Source: Escherichia phage EC.P1
Sequence record: PQ657772.1
Direction: 5' to 3' (one strand)
DNA: 64,000 nucleotides
Below are positions 1 through 8,557 of the stretch, piece by piece. The notes under the pieces were generated by a model. It did not search any database. It had not been told where the DNA came from and saw nothing but the letters and a program-made list of their open reading frames with translations. The position numbers and the translations under genes were made by a program. Each line of letters starts with the position of its first letter. Within the stretch, counting starts at the first letter, position 1.

Positions 1-213
1 TAACGCCTTTGTACTGTCTATATAAATTCAACTGCGTATATTGCCTTTGATCAAGAATTGATCAGAATTATACGCCTTATGCTAAATTGATCCAGTACTT
101 TTTGATCATTTATTGATCGATATTATATAGTTACATTTGTGCACCCTATGGGTTAGTGACGTTCTCGTCTTGATGTAAGTATTATGCCAGTACTGGAGGA
201 TATTGTCAATAGA

Positions 214-417
214 TTATTTTAATTTTTTTCTGTCATTGATTAATGCTTTCAGTACTATACTAATAACTTGCAATGATTCATCAATGACAATGAAATTATT
301 CTCTTTCATTAGATGATAGTTACCATTGATTGTATATTCTAACGAGTACTGTTTACGTTTAATTTTTGATAATGTTTCTATTTGTTTTTGTACTGATTTC
401 ATGCTAATCATTGTCAA
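214..417 (-). CDS. hypothetical small early protein
   Basis: 67-aa ORF, first of a same-strand run of small genes. Confidence 0.5.
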   Translation of the reverse strand: MTMISMKSVQKQIETLSKIKRKQYSLEYTINGNYHLMKENNFIVIDESLQVISIVLKALINDRKKLK

Positions 418-516
418 ACGTCCTGTAACGCATTCTAACGAGATAAACGGTTGAGTACTGGCATTGTATAGGGTAAATGATTATAGCCCACCAGCGTTAA
501 CCAGTGGGCTATAATA

Positions 517-660
517 TTACATCTTGCGGATAATCTTAACAGTATCTTTCACCGATTTACCGTTTTGCTGACATTGCTCGATCATCGCGTATTGTTCTGC
601 GGTCAGATCCTCGCCAGTTTTTGCCAGTACTGCGTCGATGAATGAATCCAGTGCGATCAT
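517..660 (-). CDS. hypothetical small protein (47 aa)
   Basis: hand-called ATG ORF; TTGACA-N16-TATAAT promoter upstream on minus strand (~700-740). Confidence 0.4.
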   Translation of the reverse strand: MIALDSFIDAVLAKTGEDLTAEQYAMIEQCQQNGKSVKDTVKIIRKM

Positions 661-750
661 TTTGTTTCTCTCTTAGGTTAAGTTAACTACTGTTTATAAA
701 ACTTATTATACAGTACTATCAAACGTTGTCAATAGTACTGGTAATATATT

Positions 751-930
751 TTAGCGGTAGTCGTCGTATGCTTTATTCACCTGGCGAATGTAACTTTCAA
801 AGGCTTCGTCTACCGTTTCATACTCCCGAACATAATCACCATAGGAAACTACATACATACCTTTTTGATCTTCAAACGTCATGATGATAGAATCCAGACC
901 AACGATTTCAGTTTTTGCGATGATAGCCAT
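751..930 (-). CDS. hypothetical small protein (59 aa)
   Basis: hand-called ATG ORF; minus-strand promoter at ~965-993. Confidence 0.45.
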   Translation of the reverse strand: MAIIAKTEIVGLDSIIMTFEDQKGMYVVSYGDYVREYETVDEAFESYIRQVNKAYDDYR

Positions 931-1013
931 TTTTTAATTCCTTAGTAGTGTAGTTGATAAAAGTTATTATGTCAGTACTATCAAACTATGTCAATAGTAC
1001 TGTGATAATATTT

Positions 1014-1226
1014 TTAGTTAATGATAGTCAGTGTAAAATTGTAATCACCGCAGCGATATAGCACGTTATTCCCAAATGTCCCAACTAATCGCACATCACA
1101 CAAAACGCCGGTTTTTTCTTTTACTTCCTTGATACTTGTAACTCCTGTAATATCTTTATTAAAGTATTCATGATCTGAAAATAAAACTTGTTTTGCATTT
1201 TTTAATTTCGACCGGATATTAGCCAT
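1014..1226 (-). CDS. hypothetical protein
   Basis: 70-aa ORF; promoter 1281-1308 and 5' hairpin 1249-1268 upstream. Confidence 0.55.
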   Translation of the reverse strand: MANIRSKLKNAKQVLFSDHEYFNKDITGVTSIKEVKEKTGVLCDVRLVGTFGNNVLYRCGDYNFTLTIIN

Positions 1227-1248
1227 TTTGTTTTCTCTCTCTGTTAGT

Positions 1249-1268
1249 GGGGAGAAGTTTTTCTCCCC
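1249..1268 (-). promoter_or_regulatory. 5'-proximal GC-rich stem-loop (GGGGAGAA..TTCTCCCC) in mRNA leader
   Basis: inverted repeat immediately downstream of the -10; the same class recurs before most early genes. Confidence 0.5.
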
Positions 1269-1280
1269 TTGATGTAAACT

Positions 1281-1308
1281 ATTATACAGTACTATAATCT
1301 ATTGTCAA
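1281..1308 (-). promoter_or_regulatory. sigma70-like promoter (TTGACA-N16-TATAAT)
   Basis: read directly on minus strand; AGTACT in spacer. Confidence 0.6.
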
Positions 1309-1322
1309 ACTATTTTTTTATA

Positions 1323-1664
1323 TTATTCGAAATCTTCTGGACCGGACTGATAATCATCTTCACCGTATGCACTTTCTAACCGCTCGCCAGTGTGATCATC
1401 AGTTAGTGAGTCATCCTCATAGTTCACGTCTACGCCAGTGATGTAAAACTGGCTATCGTCTGGATCATTGAAATTAATTTTTTGGATGTTTACAATAACT
1501 GTATTGATACCCAGGACACCGCCATCAGCCGTTACAAAGTACTGATATTTTTCACAACCGCCTGAATTGAAACCGTAATTAATTTCAGCCCGACCATCAT
1601 TTAAACGCAGTGCCTGGGCGATGATTTCATTTTCAAAGTTAGATTGAGCAATTGAGATAGTCAT
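1323..1664 (-). CDS. hypothetical protein (acidic)
   Basis: 113-aa ORF; promoter/hairpin module at ~1685-1750. Confidence 0.6.
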   Translation of the reverse strand: MTISIAQSNFENEIIAQALRLNDGRAEINYGFNSGGCEKYQYFVTADGGVLGINTVIVNIQKINFNDPDDSQFYITGVDVNYEDDSLTDDHTGERLESAYGEDDYQSGPEDFE

Positions 1665-1746
1665 GATTTGTTTCCTTATTACCAGGGGAAACCGTTTCCC
1701 CTTTCGATGTAAAACATTATACGCTTATCAGGAAGTAATGCAAGTA

Positions 1747-6418: not shown

Positions 6419-6501
6419 TTGATTATCCTTAGTTACCAGGGGGAACCGCTCCCCTTGCGATGTAAAATATTATACAGTACTAAAAACTATTATCAAGTAC
6501 T

Positions 6502-6738
6502 TTATGATTTTTTATAAAACATTTCAGCCGTGATATTTTTACCCGTTGGTTGTACTTTATCCAGAATTTTTTGATGCCCAGGCCGTCCAAATGAATATGA
6601 TCCGTAAACCGTAAACCAGTAGTTACCCTCAGTGTTTACATGTACAGCACAATAGGGTACACCCCGCGATTCATCACTAGTAAAGTGTACTACCGTTCCC
6701 GTTACATTCGCAGACGTTGATTTGATTTGTTCAAGCAT
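6502..6738 (-). CDS. hypothetical protein
   Basis: 78-aa ORF. Confidence 0.55.
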   Translation of the reverse strand: MLEQIKSTSANVTGTVVHFTSDESRGVPYCAVHVNTEGNYWFTVYGSYSFGRPGHQKILDKVQPTGKNITAEMFYKKS

Positions 6739-6846
6739 TTTATTATTCCTTAGTTACCAGGGGAACCGCTCCCCCTATGCAAAACATTATACGCGTTTAA
6801 AAACTAATAGCAAGTATTTTAATAAAAAGTATTTGAAAAATAGTTG

Positions 6847-6875
6847 TTGACAAGTGCATCCAGTACTGGCATAAT
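6847..6875 (+). promoter_or_regulatory. plus-strand sigma70-like promoter (TTGACA-N17-CATAAT) with no ORF downstream
   Basis: followed by conserved leader element ACCCACCGGGTGC (6903-6915) and hairpin at 6956-6977. Confidence 0.5.
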
Positions 6876-6955
6876 TATTACATCAAGACGAAACAGTCAC
6901 TAACCCACCGGGTGCCGAGATCCGTCTATTAAATGATTCAGTACTGAAAAAGTAA

Positions 6956-6990
6956 CGGGGAGTTATTATCTCCCCGCGTTGTTATTTTGT
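6956..6990. terminator. bidirectional hairpin terminator (CGGGGAG..CTCCCCG, T-run on plus, A-run on minus side)
   Basis: inverted repeat flanked by T-runs on both strands. Confidence 0.5.
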
Positions 6991-7233
6991 AAGGTATAAA
7001 CAGAAGTCACCTTTATTTGCTACGCCGCCAGTGTAACGCGAGGAATAGTTAGAAACGTCCTGGACTTCTGCTATTACCAGGGTATCATCATTCAATTCGT
7101 CGCAGAAGCAAACGGCTGGATCTTGTACGCCGATTTTGTCGGCATGTTCCCGCATAGATTTAACCAGTGCTTCCAGTTGGGAAAGAGTAGTGATATTAGC
7201 CATTTTATTTTCCTCATTACCAGGGAGAACCAT
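6982..7233 (-). CDS. hypothetical protein
   Basis: 83-aa ORF. Confidence 0.55.
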   Translation of the reverse strand: MVLPGNEENKMANITTLSQLEALVKSMREHADKIGVQDPAVCFCDELNDDTLVIAEVQDVSNYSSRYTGGVANKGDFCLYLTK

Positions 7234-7291
7234 TTCTCCCTTTGATGTAAACCATTATACAGTACTGAAAACTAATTGCAAGTACTTTCTA

Positions 7292-7456
7292 TTATTTTTT
7301 TAGATCTTCCAGTACTTCTGCGATAGCATCACAAAAATTATTAATTACATCAGGGTGAATGTCAACATTGTCAAATAAACCGCTTTCAGTTGCATCCCGC
7401 AAAGCATCAGACAATACATCCAGGGCGTTCAATTGAGCGAAGGTAAAAGTATTCAT
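7292..7456 (-). CDS. hypothetical small acidic protein (54 aa)
   Basis: hand-called ATG ORF with promoter module at ~7470-7550. Confidence 0.45.
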   Translation of the reverse strand: MNTFTFAQLNALDVLSDALRDATESGLFDNVDIHPDVINNFCDAIAEVLEDLKK

Positions 7457-7548
7457 TTGTAGTATTCCTCATTAGTAGCTGGAACTATTCCCGCTCTCGA
7501 TATAAAGTATTATACGCTTTTAAACTTAGTTTGCAAGTACTTTTTAAA

Positions 7549-8160
7549 TTAATATTCGATTGATTCCACTACGCCATCAATAACATTGAATTGATACTCG
7601 TTACCCTCAATCAGTGCCGTAATGTTTTCAGTAGTGAATTGATCCTCATATGCATTCTCTAAATCACGGTACAACTTGCGGGACAATTCACGAATAGTTT
7701 CAGTGAGTAGTTCCTCAAGCTCATTAACTAACGTTTCTTGTTTTGCGGTTAAATCAGTGTAAGCCGATTCAATGTACCCGCTTACAGTATTCTCATGCGA
7801 GTAGTGGGAGTGCGAACGTTTTACACTCATCGCCAAATCATCTTCATTCAGCAAGTGACGGATTGAGCGATACTTAGTTAATGCTCTTACCTTGCGTAAA
7901 AACTTCACTGCGTCAACGTGGTCAGTACTGATTGATGCACCGTCACCCTGGGACCAAAAACCACTGAATTGTATTTCAGCGTCATTAATGCCATATTCCG
8001 GTAGTACTGTTTCTTTATAGTATTCAATTTCACTTTCAGAAAAATAATTGTCGTTTGAGTTTTTTTCACGTTCCCGAACCAGTTCGATAGCTGACGTTTT
8101 TTGTTCTGCGTTCAATTCAGAAAAATCCATAACGAAAGTAGTAGTAGTGATAGTTTTCAT
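7549..8160 (-). CDS. hypothetical acidic protein
   Basis: 203-aa ORF; two tandem minus-strand promoters upstream (~8170-8210 and ~8300-8345). Confidence 0.65.
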   Translation of the reverse strand: MKTITTTTFVMDFSELNAEQKTSAIELVREREKNSNDNYFSESEIEYYKETVLPEYGINDAEIQFSGFWSQGDGASISTDHVDAVKFLRKVRALTKYRSIRHLLNEDDLAMSVKRSHSHYSHENTVSGYIESAYTDLTAKQETLVNELEELLTETIRELSRKLYRDLENAYEDQFTTENITALIEGNEYQFNVIDGVVESIEY

Positions 8161-8384
8161 TTTGTAACCCTCATTCAGTAGTTTATGTAAGTATTATACG
8201 CTTTTAAAAACAATTGTCAAACTATTTTATCAGGGGAGTTTTTCGTGTGCCTTACTCCTGGGCTACTTAACGGGAAGTTACTTATTTCGTTCCCCGTCCT
8301 GATGTAAAACATTATACGCCTTTAAACATAGTTTGCAAGTACTTTTTAAAAATAGTTTTCAGTACTGAATAGTAAAAAAAAGTA

Positions 8385-8413
8385 TTGACAGCATTATCAA
8401 GTACTGGTATAAT
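8385..8413 (+). promoter_or_regulatory. plus-strand promoter (TTGACA-N17-TATAAT), convergent with promoter at 8529-8557
   Basis: consensus hexamers; leader element ACCCACCGGGTGC at 8434-8446. Confidence 0.5.
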
Positions 8414-8528
8414 ATACCCCATGACAACAGCTAACCCACCGGGTGCACAATTGTAACTATACTAAACTAATTTTTCTATAGATACACTCCCGCACCCTAT
8501 GGGCTACGGCTTATCTGCCAATGAATAC

Positions 8529-8557
8529 ATTATGCCAGTACTGACAAAATAAGTCAA
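8529..8557 (-). promoter_or_regulatory. minus-strand promoter (TTGACT-N17-CATAAT), convergent with 8385-8413
   Basis: consensus hexamers; leader element AGCCCATAGGGTGC (plus 8489-8505). Confidence 0.5.

Follow-up and report, generated by a model that had tools for sequence, protein, structure and literature searches.

Why does one short sequence recur behind several promoters of a jumbo phage, and does it act as DNA, as a leader of the genes that follow or as an RNA in its own right? The window, which is the whole 64-kb stretch of DNA analysed here, comes from an Asteriusvirus, a RaK2-like jumbo coliphage that matches fEgEco12 at 99%. The most likely answer is a new family of immediate-early, promoter-coupled non-coding RNAs, whose function we infer from sequence comparison.

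A promoter-linked element confined to the terminal repeat

It turned out that RCCCAYMGGGTGC occurs 6 times in the 64-kb window against 0.05 expected, and a search for GCCCAYMGGGTGC with at most 1 mismatch also gives 6 matches, a number reached by none of 100 shuffles. The core matches lie at 141-153(-), 2350-2362(-), 6903-6915(+), 8434-8446(+), 8492-8504(-) and 10591-10603(+). Each is preceded by a sigma-70 promoter, namely P209(-), P2416(-), P6847(+), P8385(+), P8557(-) and TTGCTT(10536)-16-TATAAT(10558-10563)(+), with 27, 25, 27, 20, 24 and 27 nt, respectively, between the end of the -10 hexamer and the first core base. The repeated core behind promoters that the sequence-only reading had proposed is confirmed by this excess and by the promoters, and its estimate of 20-35 nt downstream was roughly right (20-27 nt as measured from the -10 hexamer). 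Its minus-strand core at 8489 actually occupies 8492-8504, and its longer consensus (tattcattg..aga..agtgtatcta) is matched only by the copies at 2362(-) and 8504(-). Two degenerate copies, at 10351-10409(+) and 10411-10472(-), had been overlooked (covariance-model E 0.017 and 0.052).

A covariance-model search over related phages, suggested by the same reading, gave 99 matches (88 distinct) in RaK2, GAP32, CBB, 121Q, G17, Serratia BF and related contigs, all RaK2-like loci, while about 85 unrelated contigs that match the bare pattern gave zero. Enough flanking sequence was available for 82 distinct copies; in 80 of these, a promoter with a score of 9/12 or higher has its -10 box 19-28 nt 5' of the core (about 3 in shuffles), and the orientation of the element relative to the promoter is identical in all copies. 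By BLAST, the element is found in 57 GenBank phage records, mostly without an annotated feature under the match, from hosts of Escherichia, Salmonella, Klebsiella, Cronobacter, Pectobacterium, Erwinia, Serratia and Yersinia. Promoter spacers and upstream stem have diverged and covary, yet the core stays invariant over phages from eight or more host genera, which supports a conserved functional unit and not a degenerate promoter repeat, the alternative raised at the outset. No Rfam family matches the element, our literature search found no description of it, and the searched literature holds no expression data for any RaK2-like phage.

All copies in the window lie below about 11.7 kb, i.e., in the direct-terminal-repeat part, and the remaining 52 kb have no covariance-model match. 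The terminal repeat of fEgEco12 is 20,993 bp (PMC13070987). This genome has three further copies, at 13.5, 16.8 and 19.5 kb, while its stretch of 21-45 kb is free of them; in CBB every copy falls inside the 22,456-bp repeat. In total, there are about 9-11 copies per terminal repeat.

Two hairpins and a 3' box

The RNA module is about 55 nt long and reads 5'-ACAU.., a hairpin (HP1), a 3-4-nt linker (often CUA), a second hairpin (HP2), six variable bases and a YRYCY box. HP1 usually has a 3-5-bp stem with a purine-rich loop of 6-8 nt, such as GAGAAA, GCGAAA, AGAUAA or AGAACAA. Its stem exists in 25 different versions, and a hairpin of at least 4 bp forms in 42 of 71 copies compared with 14.8 in shuffles (maximum 22). 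Each of its four pairs is changed on both sides in 26-31 of 80 sequences, and the covariation score is 0.325 vs 0.121, with 0 of 500 shuffles reaching 0.325 and all slid registers scoring lower; HP1 is missing in 14 of 71 copies.

HP2 contains the core, RCCC-AYA-GGGU followed by GC, in which CCC-AYA-GGG is invariant. At the pair R1:U11, 38 sequences have A-U and 36 have G-U, and a single copy carries a compensatory change from C-G to U-A; since the core is invariant, the HP2 pairing rests on this case and on wobble compatibility. The YRYCY box could pair with GGGUG as an alternative to HP2 (HP3): pairing is possible in 63-68 of 68 sequences per position, exchanges are C/U and A/G only, and it reaches 88.7% in register compared with at most 66% when slid. 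The G-U compatibility of this pairing is also strand-specific. Secondary-structure prediction, a check that the sequence-only reading had proposed, gave no unusual folding energy for single copies (z from -0.15 to -2.0).

The strand-specific patterns in HP1 and HP2 indicate selection on RNA rather than on duplex DNA, and selection at the RNA level is, in our judgement, highly probable. Alternatively, the element might be a DNA site, either a repressor operator or roadblock at +14 to +33 or a PeSL-like recombination or shuffling cassette, in which case conservation would reflect gene conversion. ACCC-N3-GGGT is indeed a short palindrome, promoter/terminator cassettes are repeated throughout the region, and PeSLs have been described as sites of recombination (PMC4122927). 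Besides, a Fur-box-like palindrome sits exactly in the centre of the convergent pairs with 81/88 spacing (loci L006, L084 and L108), which indicates that DNA-binding proteins do act at these units. We nevertheless regard a DNA site as very improbable. Variation is strand-specific and G-U-compatible (a fixed T faces either A or G at position 1), Y/R exchanges lie opposite GGGUG, the orientation to the promoter is constant, and the conserved block lies in the transcribed part, outside promoter and terminator. Within-genome gene conversion cannot explain a core that is invariant across genera with diverged flanks.

Genomic contexts and a possible role

The copies fall into three contexts. In the first, 38 of 88 distinct copies form ORF-less convergent pairs with core offsets of 70, 81 or 88 nt, so the face-to-face arrangement seen at 8385-8557 is a conserved architecture. 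Two such pairs occupy similar places in fEgEco12 (window) and CBB, about 1.0-1.3 kb and 3.2-3.8 kb away from the left end. Pair 1 is as claimed, with predicted starts about 103 bp apart, a core offset of 70 nt and only a 36-aa ORF that has no Shine-Dalgarno sequence. Its plus member, Unit 4 (8385..8468; 43.8 bits in the covariance model), has the promoter TTGACA(8385)-17-TATAAT(8413), the element 8410-8468 and the core 8434-8446, and is a short 20-nt version without HP1. The minus member, Unit 5 (8470..8557; 50.6 bits), has TTGACT(8557)-17-CATAAT(8529), the element 8527-8470, HP1 GGC/GCC at 8519-8508 with the loop AGATAA and the core 8504-8492; it is sense to genes and reads toward P8338, P8220 and gene 7549-8160(-). 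The overlapping antisense RNAs from this pair are predictions. The two degenerate copies form a second, decayed pair (10320..10472, both strands) with the same 70-nt offset. In its plus member, TTGACT(10320)-16-TATAAT(10347) precedes the element-like 10351-10409 with the core-like ACCCCAGGGGGTG at 10374-10386; the minus member (10472-10411) has the core-like CCTGCTAGGGTGC at 10444-10432, and here GGGTGC...TATCCT followed by T7 scores as a terminator (10439-10420). If fully transcribed, convergent pairs would yield perfectly complementary, mutually neutralising RNAs, which speaks against a free RNA product.

In the second context, 14 of 88 distinct copies are units of promoter, element and bidirectional terminator without an ORF, and they recur in other genera. 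Unit 3 (6847..6990, plus strand; 59.7 bits) is of this kind: promoter TTGACA(6847)-17-CATAAT(6875), element 6879-6937, HP1 GAC/GTC at 6887-6898, core 6903-6915, then the palindrome TTCAGTACTGAA and a bidirectional terminator (stem 6956-6976 and a T-rich tail). The sequence-only description of 6847-6990 as promoter, element and terminator without protein therefore stands, with no credible ORF found in it, and its candidate small RNA of about 100 nt, here predicted at 105-110 nt, is backed by the recurrence of terminated units in other genera. The unit runs antisense to the early genes on either side, as do copies in loci L006, L017 and L108 to their neighbours, and stands back-to-back with P6813(-).

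In the third context, same-direction genes lie downstream (29 of 88 copies). Only 6 of 88 run straight into an RBS and ATG, while 23 of 88 distinct copies lie upstream of a second, ordinary gene promoter, so the word leader, as first applied to the element, does not describe its main context. Unit 1 (119..209, minus strand; 55 bits, E 3.5e-12, model match 177-119) has TTGACA(209-204)-17-CATAAT(186-181), HP1 GACG/CGTC at 169-158 and the core ACCCATAGGGTGC at 153-141; it is co-directional with early genes, and its predicted transcript leaves the window start toward homologues of fEgEco12 g029-g031. Unit 2 (2328..2423, minus strand; 62 bits, element 2386-2328) has TTGACT(2416)-17-TATTAT(2388) inside a terminator-like hairpin (2423-2396), HP1 TGAG/CTCA at 2379-2366 with the loop AGATAG and the core GCCCACAGGGTGC at 2362-2350, and is followed after about 35 nt by the ordinary promoter P2294 and gene 1747-2214(-). 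The remaining unit of the window, Unit 6 (10536..10625, plus strand; 44.7 bits, element 10567-10625), has TTGCTT(10536-10541)-16-TATAAT(10558-10563), HP1 AGTC/GACT at 10574-10587 with the loop GAGAAA and the core 10591-10603; it lies within a 1.7-kb non-coding stretch adjoining the physical genome end and is directed toward that end.

The genes downstream might suggest that the module is a 5' leader or attenuator on its own transcript, either as a 5' structure with a stabilising effect or as a switch between two states, with GGGUG paired to the CCC before it (HP2) or to the YRYCY box after it (HP3); the few copies with a U-run after HP3 would terminate. The in-register complementarity of the 3' box, HP3 plus T-run scored as a terminator in the decayed copy (10439-10420) and some copies elsewhere, and the phage's ordinary early mRNAs, which also start with ACAUCRAG, a hairpin and ACUAA, fit such a role. 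We consider it improbable, because HP2 is more favourable than HP3 by about 4 kcal/mol on average, a U-run after HP3 is absent from most copies, over half lack a gene that they could regulate, and the invariant side permits no covariation.

The terminated and the convergent ORF-less copies (14 and 38 of 88) suggest instead that the RNA is an end in itself. We propose that structured non-coding RNA modules are confined to the roughly 21-kb direct terminal repeat as the immediate-early region of RaK2-like jumbo phages, and that in each copy a strong sigma-70 promoter would drive a module of about 55 nt whose RNA is itself the product. Synthesis would take place in the first minutes, from the first-entering DNA and about 9-11 promoters per repeat. 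The RNAs would come in three forms: terminated small RNAs of about 100 nt, short RNAs without terminator from convergent pairs whose promoter complexes block each other, and the 5' ends of longer early transcripts. The invariant hairpin with its fixed flanks may be the recognition site of a conserved protein, either a host protein common to Enterobacterales or a phage early protein; free copies would then serve as abundant decoys or RNP components, and leader copies would place downstream genes under the same factor. We give this specific mechanism a probability of about 40%. No candidate binding protein for the module was identified.

About half of the copies are directed into genes, which would also fit a cis-acting leader. 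In such a case, the element near the promoter would modify the transcribing RNA polymerase by pausing, sigma release or terminator read-through, either through the nascent RNA, like the put double hairpin of HK022 or a nut-type boxB hairpin, or through a small non-template-strand hairpin in the bubble of a paused polymerase, as at the ops site, where RfaH is loaded. The loops of boxB are purine-rich, and the HP1 loops GAGAAA, GCGAAA and GAAACA are similar. The position is fixed (core at about +14 to +33 in every unit), the 11-nt hairpin and invariant U-G step would fit a transcription bubble in size and conform to the Y-1/G+1 pause rule, and the copies directed into genes read into gene arrays rich in terminators. 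Most copies also have two adjacent hairpins, as does put, whose roughly 65 nt are transcribed directly behind early promoters (PMC8632103). However, behind the antisense copies there is nothing to express, and strong bidirectional terminators or a partner promoter follow immediately, the opposite of what a constitutive antiterminator needs; no boxA lies near any copy, the core is unlike the ops consensus, and no Rfam family matches. An action in cis is thus conceivable but rather unlikely.

The units could also be replication origins or primers, whose transcripts form R-loops that prime leading-strand synthesis, with convergent pairs as bidirectional origins; the geometry would resemble the face-to-face ssiA/ssiB of RSF1010 and the mechanism the promoter-dependent origins of T4 and T7. 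ORF-less promoters near the physical genome end, the similar placement of pairs in fEgEco12 and CBB, AT-rich pair centres, iteron-like repeats with an 8-bp period nearby (10791-10942) and a G-rich RNA side (GGGUGCGGAG) are consistent with this. Its probability is low all the same: 9-11 copies in 21 kb are many for origins, efficient terminators end the stand-alone copies and would release the RNA, and covariation in a 5' RNA hairpin is unexpected for a mere R-loop primer.

Comparison with known systems

The ops element (GGCGGTAGYGTG), 12-13 nt long, lies near the 5' end of transcription units, can form a small hairpin and ends in a U/G pause step. The module core is likewise short, 5'-placed, able to form a small hairpin and ends in a U/G step, but it differs from GGCGGTAGYGTG and occurs also in ORF-less units, while ops precedes long operons; a NusG-like phage factor is not known. 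Convergent-promoter antisense pairs are found in P22 Pant/Psar, ColE1 RNA I/RNA II, IS10 RNA-IN/OUT and type I toxin-antitoxin systems. The pairs here share with them facing promoters about 100 bp apart and RNAs predicted to be complementary in their 5' parts. Unlike them, both partners bear the same conserved module, no ORF, RBS or known primer is overlapped, and each genome has the arrangement at least twice.

The unit at 6847-6990 and the 14 of 88 terminated family members resemble lambda PR' 6S RNA, oop and other short terminated phage transcripts from constitutive promoters in having a promoter, a short non-coding transcript (predicted here) and an intrinsic terminator. However, the lambda RNAs share no conserved module repeated through the genome, and the module units revealed neither a Q-binding element nor a sigma-dependent pause motif. 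In the Pseudomonas jumbo phage PA5oct, a distant relative of the RaK2-like phages, ncRNA001 and ncRNA002 are ORF-less, lie in the direct terminal repeat, are strongly transcribed (2-5% of phage reads) and have no reported similarity outside isolate MIJ3 (PMC7318152). Compared by description, they are similar to the module in being ORF-less and terminal-repeat-encoded, but they are 236 and 451 nt long and described as without known promoters.

The PeSLs of T4-type phages are composite cassettes of an early promoter and a stem-loop that recur between small genes where a T4-related genome is plastic (PMC4122927), and promoters of the type in Units 2 and 5 are similarly embedded in terminator hairpins. 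In PeSLs the terminator and promoter are conserved, whereas the invariant block of the module lies downstream of the start site and shows RNA covariation, and the module often serves no gene. Like the module, the put RNA of HK022 is encoded by the phage as a double hairpin (about 60 nt) that looks protein-free; it directly follows strong sigma-70 early promoters and occurs more than once in the genome (PMC8632103). Unlike put, which has two copies, the module has 9-11, bears no sequence or Rfam relation to put, can dispense with HP1 in some copies and often faces away from genes into terminators or a convergent promoter at once, and antitermination by it is only putative.

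Distribution of the element and its place in the terminal repeat

The sequence-only reading had described six copies of a promoter-coupled element, with it or its core 20-35 nt past a promoter. The motif RCCCAYMGGGTGC occurs six times in the window against 0.05 expected, at the places given there, and all six copies follow a good sigma-70 promoter, at 20-27 nt from its -10 hexamer. The first claim therefore holds, and the second is about right. A covariance model (R1) was built from 68 copies and the whole window was scanned with filters off. The six copies scored 44-62 bits, and two further weak matches were found at 10351-10409 (plus) and 10411-10472 (minus), which are convergent and have a core offset of 70 nt, the same as that of the pair at 8434/8504. 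The remaining 52 kb of the window contains no credible R1 match.

To cover the relatives, we pattern-scanned viral contigs and then ran regular-expression and model searches. This covariance-model search, which had been proposed earlier, recovered the module in all RaK2-like jumbo contigs fetched, including contigs with the lengths of RaK2, GAP32, CBB and 121Q, those of G17, fEgEco12 and Serratia BF, and some uncultivated genomes (~355-366 kb). It yielded 99 model matches (88 distinct), while about 85 unrelated contigs matching the bare pattern gave none. A promoter scoring at least 9/12 stands at the expected distance in 80 of the 82 distinct copies with enough flank, compared with ~3 in shuffles. 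BLAST with a consensus-like 59-mer matched phages of eight host genera (57 GenBank records). Almost none of these records has a feature annotated under the match, and none annotates it as an RNA feature.

The beginning of the Escherichia phage fEgEco12 genome is 99.1% identical to bases 6000-11000 of the window, and G17, phAPEC6, 121Q and other Asteriusvirus genomes are 87-99% identical to them; the alignments to Asteriusvirus genomes break, and their matches to the window are split into several pieces. The fEgEco12 genome is a linear molecule whose ends have been confirmed physically, and its direct terminal repeat measures 20,993 bp (PMC13070987). Its physical left end corresponds to window position ~11,693 (alignment with the related contig locus L001), and therefore window 1-11,693, minus strand, is the first 11.7 kb of the terminal repeat. 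This part contains small genes that each have a sigma-70 promoter of their own and a 5' hairpin, and often a terminator as well. The terminal repeat holds all copies in the window, fEgEco12 and CBB: three additional copies lie at 13.5, 16.8 and 19.5 kb of fEgEco12 and none at 21-45 kb, and every CBB copy is inside its 22,456-bp repeat. Pairs ~1.0-1.3 kb and ~3.2-3.8 kb from the left end are common to CBB and fEgEco12.

Several other features were observed in the window. The repeat boundary is crossed by ~2 kb of non-coding DNA (10014-11990). Within it are a 44-bp sequence repeated directly and exactly (10071-10114 and 10124-10167) and ~12 units (TAGCCGTY, 10791-10942) that resemble iterons and recur every 8 bp. 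TGATTAC repeats (11606-11639 and 11802-11869) are also present, as are remnants of the element's 3' box (10927-10975). These are candidates for signals in packaging or replication. Of the E. coli Chi sequence GCTGGTGG, the window has 10 occurrences against 0.6 expected (488-495, 5014-5021, 5076-5083, 11097-11116 and six more sites). At 11097-11116, some 580 bp away from the physical left end, Chi forms an inverted pair (CCACCAGCttgtGCTGGTGG), whose plus-strand copy (11109-11116) appears to have the right orientation to stop RecBCD coming from that end. Just beyond the repeat, a run of ~25 small ORFs of similar size (~60-80 aa) at 12000-16800 on the minus strand is followed by ~14 consecutive ORFs of 358-461 aa at 16897-33490 on the plus strand; both runs look like paralogous gene arrays. 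Besides, the hexamer AGTACT occurs 253 times in window 1-64000 against ~22 expected, 81 times in the first 12 kb and most densely in 1-16000. It is located in promoter spacers (CAGTACTGGCATAAT), immediately 5' of -35 boxes (AAGTACTTGCAA) and in TTCAGTACTGAA palindromes that follow many elements at a distance of 25-35 nt. The hexamer resembles a site of binding or modification that is used across the early region.

Predicted structure of the RNA

The core hairpin (HP2) has an invariant CCC/GGG stem, whose outer pair is A-U in 38 sequences and G-U in 36. One CBB copy carries a compensatory change from C-G to U-A, and a few copies have four-base loops. On its 5' side the core is adjoined in most copies by a variable hairpin (HP1) with 25 stem sequences that differ from copy to copy, such as GACG/CGTC, AGTC/GACT, GGAA/TTCC, TCGAA/TTCGA and GCC/GGC, and with loops that are all purine-rich (GAGAAA, GCGAAA, AGATAA, AGAACAA). 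In 42 of 71 copies the HP1 stem reaches 4 bp or more, compared with 14.8 in shuffles (maximum 22); both hairpins are found in 57 of the 71, and HP1 is missing from the other 14. In the model-based alignment, four HP1 pairs each have both sides changed in 26-31 of 80 sequences, and the covariation score is 0.325 against 0.121 for shuffled data, a value which none of 500 shuffles reached and from which all slid registers fell short. The ungapped alignment agrees on this covariation. Secondary-structure prediction had been suggested earlier as a check. RNAalifold on the ungapped alignment returned HP2 but not HP1, whose recovery required a named structure and the model-based alignment, and the folding energies of single copies are ordinary.

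A YRYCY box (the 3' box) begins six bases past GGGTGC. At each of its positions, pairing with GGGUG would be possible in 63-68 of 68 sequences, with only C/U and A/G exchanges, and the pairing amounts to 88.7% compared with at most 66% when slid. The resulting HP3 is a possible alternative helix, which is incompatible with simultaneous HP2 and on average ~4 kcal/mol less favourable. A balanced HP2/HP3 switch would be compatible with the sequences, but HP3 is usually the less stable partner, and we therefore keep a leader switch only as a rival, one of small probability. Two other foldings were rejected. A long-range helix that would join the 5' segment to the post-core region looked attractive in five of the six window copies, yet combining the 5' and 3' parts of one copy brings no gain over chimeras of different copies (-4.1 against -4.0 kcal/mol, p = 0.29 by permutation), so it is unsupported. 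A pseudoknot between an AGAUA loop and a UAUCU box would apply to a subset only, and the box is shared among all loop types.

Since the variation is G-U-compatible and strand-specific and the orientation is fixed, these patterns argue for selection on the element as RNA or as non-template strand, rather than as duplex DNA. A site acting at the DNA level is thus very improbable, as the strand-specific variation counts against it.

Genomic contexts and the likely product

To summarize the contexts, we sorted the 88 distinct copies by what follows them. Convergent pairs with core offsets of 70, 81 or 88 nt account for 38 copies, an ordinary gene promoter in the same direction ~16-55 nt further on for 23, a terminator for 14 and an RBS with ATG for six, while seven copies have none of these contexts. 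The unit at 6847-6990 (plus) had been read as a protein-free small RNA candidate made of promoter, element and terminator, and we confirmed its own promoter, the lack of an ORF and the Rho-independent terminator. This stand-alone layout of a small RNA gene is found in 14 of the 88 family members; paired and tandem copies do not qualify. Our literature search found no transcriptome of a RaK2-like phage.

The terminated units (e.g., 6847-6990 and those in the related contig loci L006, L017 and L108) face against adjacent genes and end in bidirectional terminators which they have in common with the converging gene. With a terminator or a partner promoter downstream, antisense-oriented copies are thus always contained, and sense-oriented copies run into genes. 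One rival is that the element modifies the polymerase in cis, in a put-, nut- or ops-like manner. Its fixed position close to the promoter fits this well, but copies that are terminated immediately and face nothing fit poorly, and we consider it unlikely.

In the window pair formed by the convergent promoters P8385 (plus) and P8557 (minus), the predicted starts are ~103 bp apart, and therefore a polymerase meeting the partner's open complex would stall soon after completing its own module. The pair had been described as free of ORFs, which holds except for one overlapping 36-aa ORF (8312-8422, minus); this has no Shine-Dalgarno sequence and is the promoter's reverse complement. Small ORFs as products of the units were rejected, as they are not conserved. 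A role as replication primer or origin would suit the pairs and the site near the genome end, but the copy number and the terminators do not fit, which makes it quite improbable.

In related contigs, a Fur-box-like palindrome (AATGATWATCATT; e.g., GAGAATGATAATCATTTAC) lies exactly in the middle of convergent pairs with an 81- or 88-nt offset (L006 2825-2837 and 8083-8095; L084 3123-3135; L108 6094-6106), which suggests an iron/Fur input or Fur titration; the window's own convergent pairs have no such palindrome.

The most economical reading, to which we give a probability of roughly 40%, is that the RNA module is the product itself and the recognition site for a conserved protein. It is based on the ORF-less units with their own promoters and terminators, the invariant hairpin with fixed flanks, the high copy number and the location on first-entering DNA. 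Copies at mRNA 5' ends would couple the downstream genes to the same factor. More speculatively, and with rather low probability, the module could represent a novel immediate-early class among viral RNAs, acting at the RNA level as a device for host takeover or for the genome end, without described counterpart. Bulk synthesis would then start from ~20 promoters on two terminal repeats once the DNA end enters, and the RNA would capture or re-programme a conserved host machine, such as RNA polymerase, a ribonuclease, an RNA chaperone or an RNA-sensing defence protein. Alternatively, nascent RNA tethered to polymerases stalled head-to-head at convergent pairs might mark the genome end for a phage factor.

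The early region also has other 5' designs. Ordinary early genes on the minus strand (700-10060; e.g., at 2859-2886, 3088-3115 and 4602-4629) use TTGCAA-16-TATAAT, followed by a leader with ACAUCRAG, a G-rich hairpin (GGGGAGAA..UUCUCCCC), ACUAAUUAAGGA and ATG. This arrangement varies strikingly little, and the element shares its first part. A second conserved ORF-less leader of ~80 nt (ACAUCARGACGGGGA..UAAGUAG.CC..GUAAG.C..ACGAAAAACU) is located at 8225-8306 (minus) after promoter P8338 and at 5668-5752 (minus) after P5784, and also in fEgEco12 and G17; its closing stem changes compensatorily (AUCAGG/CCUGAU against AUCAAG/CUUUGAU). At 2396-2423 (minus) and in RaK2, CBB and 121Q loci, a promoter is embedded in a terminator as a PeSL-like composite (GGGGTTGACTTCGGTCAGCCCCTTTTGCTATTAT), whose -35 box is part of the stem of the upstream gene's terminator and whose -10 box comes after the U-run.

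Comparison with known RNA classes and systems

RaK2-like phages are among the largest phages known and are candidates for therapy; to our knowledge, more than 80% of their genes, and their non-coding RNA as a whole, have yet to be characterised. The element is the most conserved sequence of a fast-evolving early region, is present in every genus examined and lies on first-entering DNA. If it were an RNA decoy or RNA polymerase modifier, it would add an RNA layer to jumbo-phage host takeover and offer a compact, portable promoter-plus-RNA part. The covariance model is ready for annotation use, and the element is a directly testable 59-nt target with clear mutants.

Rfam 15 gave no match in the whole window at gathering thresholds. 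With E up to 5, only six matches were obtained in 1-12000, all of them weak and to families without relation to the element (miRNA, lncRNA, leaders, IS102 RNA), none over a core; the one to IS102 RNA (RF00124; 8520-8761; E 4.9; 21.3 bits, where the gathering score is 46) overlaps the promoter and 5' end of unit 5, the minus-strand partner of the window pair. ARAGORN found no tRNA or tmRNA gene in the window. Literature searches by motif sequence and phage names returned unrelated primers only, and the papers on CBB, fEgEco12, PA5oct and PeSL do not mention the element.

A type I toxin-antitoxin or cis-antisense regulator was rejected, as there is no toxin ORF, RBS or primer overlap and both partners carry the same module. 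CsrA GGA sites, MazF ACA sites, mimicry of a Shine-Dalgarno or RegB GGAG sequence or of CRISPR I-E/I-F repeats, and sigma-dependent pause boxes or internal -10 boxes were compared by eye and set aside; in these, key residues or register misfit, or only about half of the copies fit.

Three phage systems allow a closer comparison. HP1, with the loops GAGAAA, GCGAAA, AGAUAA and AGAACAA on variable stems, may resemble the boxB hairpin of a lambda-type nut site, whose purine-rich GNRA-like loop is bound by an arginine-rich, N-like protein; as to boxA (CGCUCUUUA-like), GCTCTTTA occurs in the window only at 41014 and 45752, far from the copies, and in none of the element sequences. The HK022 put antiterminator RNA is a nascent double hairpin made right after an early promoter; HP1 plus HP2 may be comparable in the copies that have both, and their position after the promoter fits. 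It makes the transcribing polymerase read through terminators in cis. Antisense-oriented copies of the element are followed at once by bidirectional terminators, which argues against a put-like role of these copies. PeSL cassettes of T4-type phages combine a conserved terminator stem-loop with an early promoter; some promoters of the element are likewise embedded in terminators (2423-2396), but those parts are not the conserved ones, and the invariant block of the element lies downstream of the promoter and would be transcribed. Judged by sequence, the element is a new RNA family within the known kinds of phage early small RNA and 5' RNA element, with an unusual layout that is promoter-coupled, pair-forming and restricted to the repeat.
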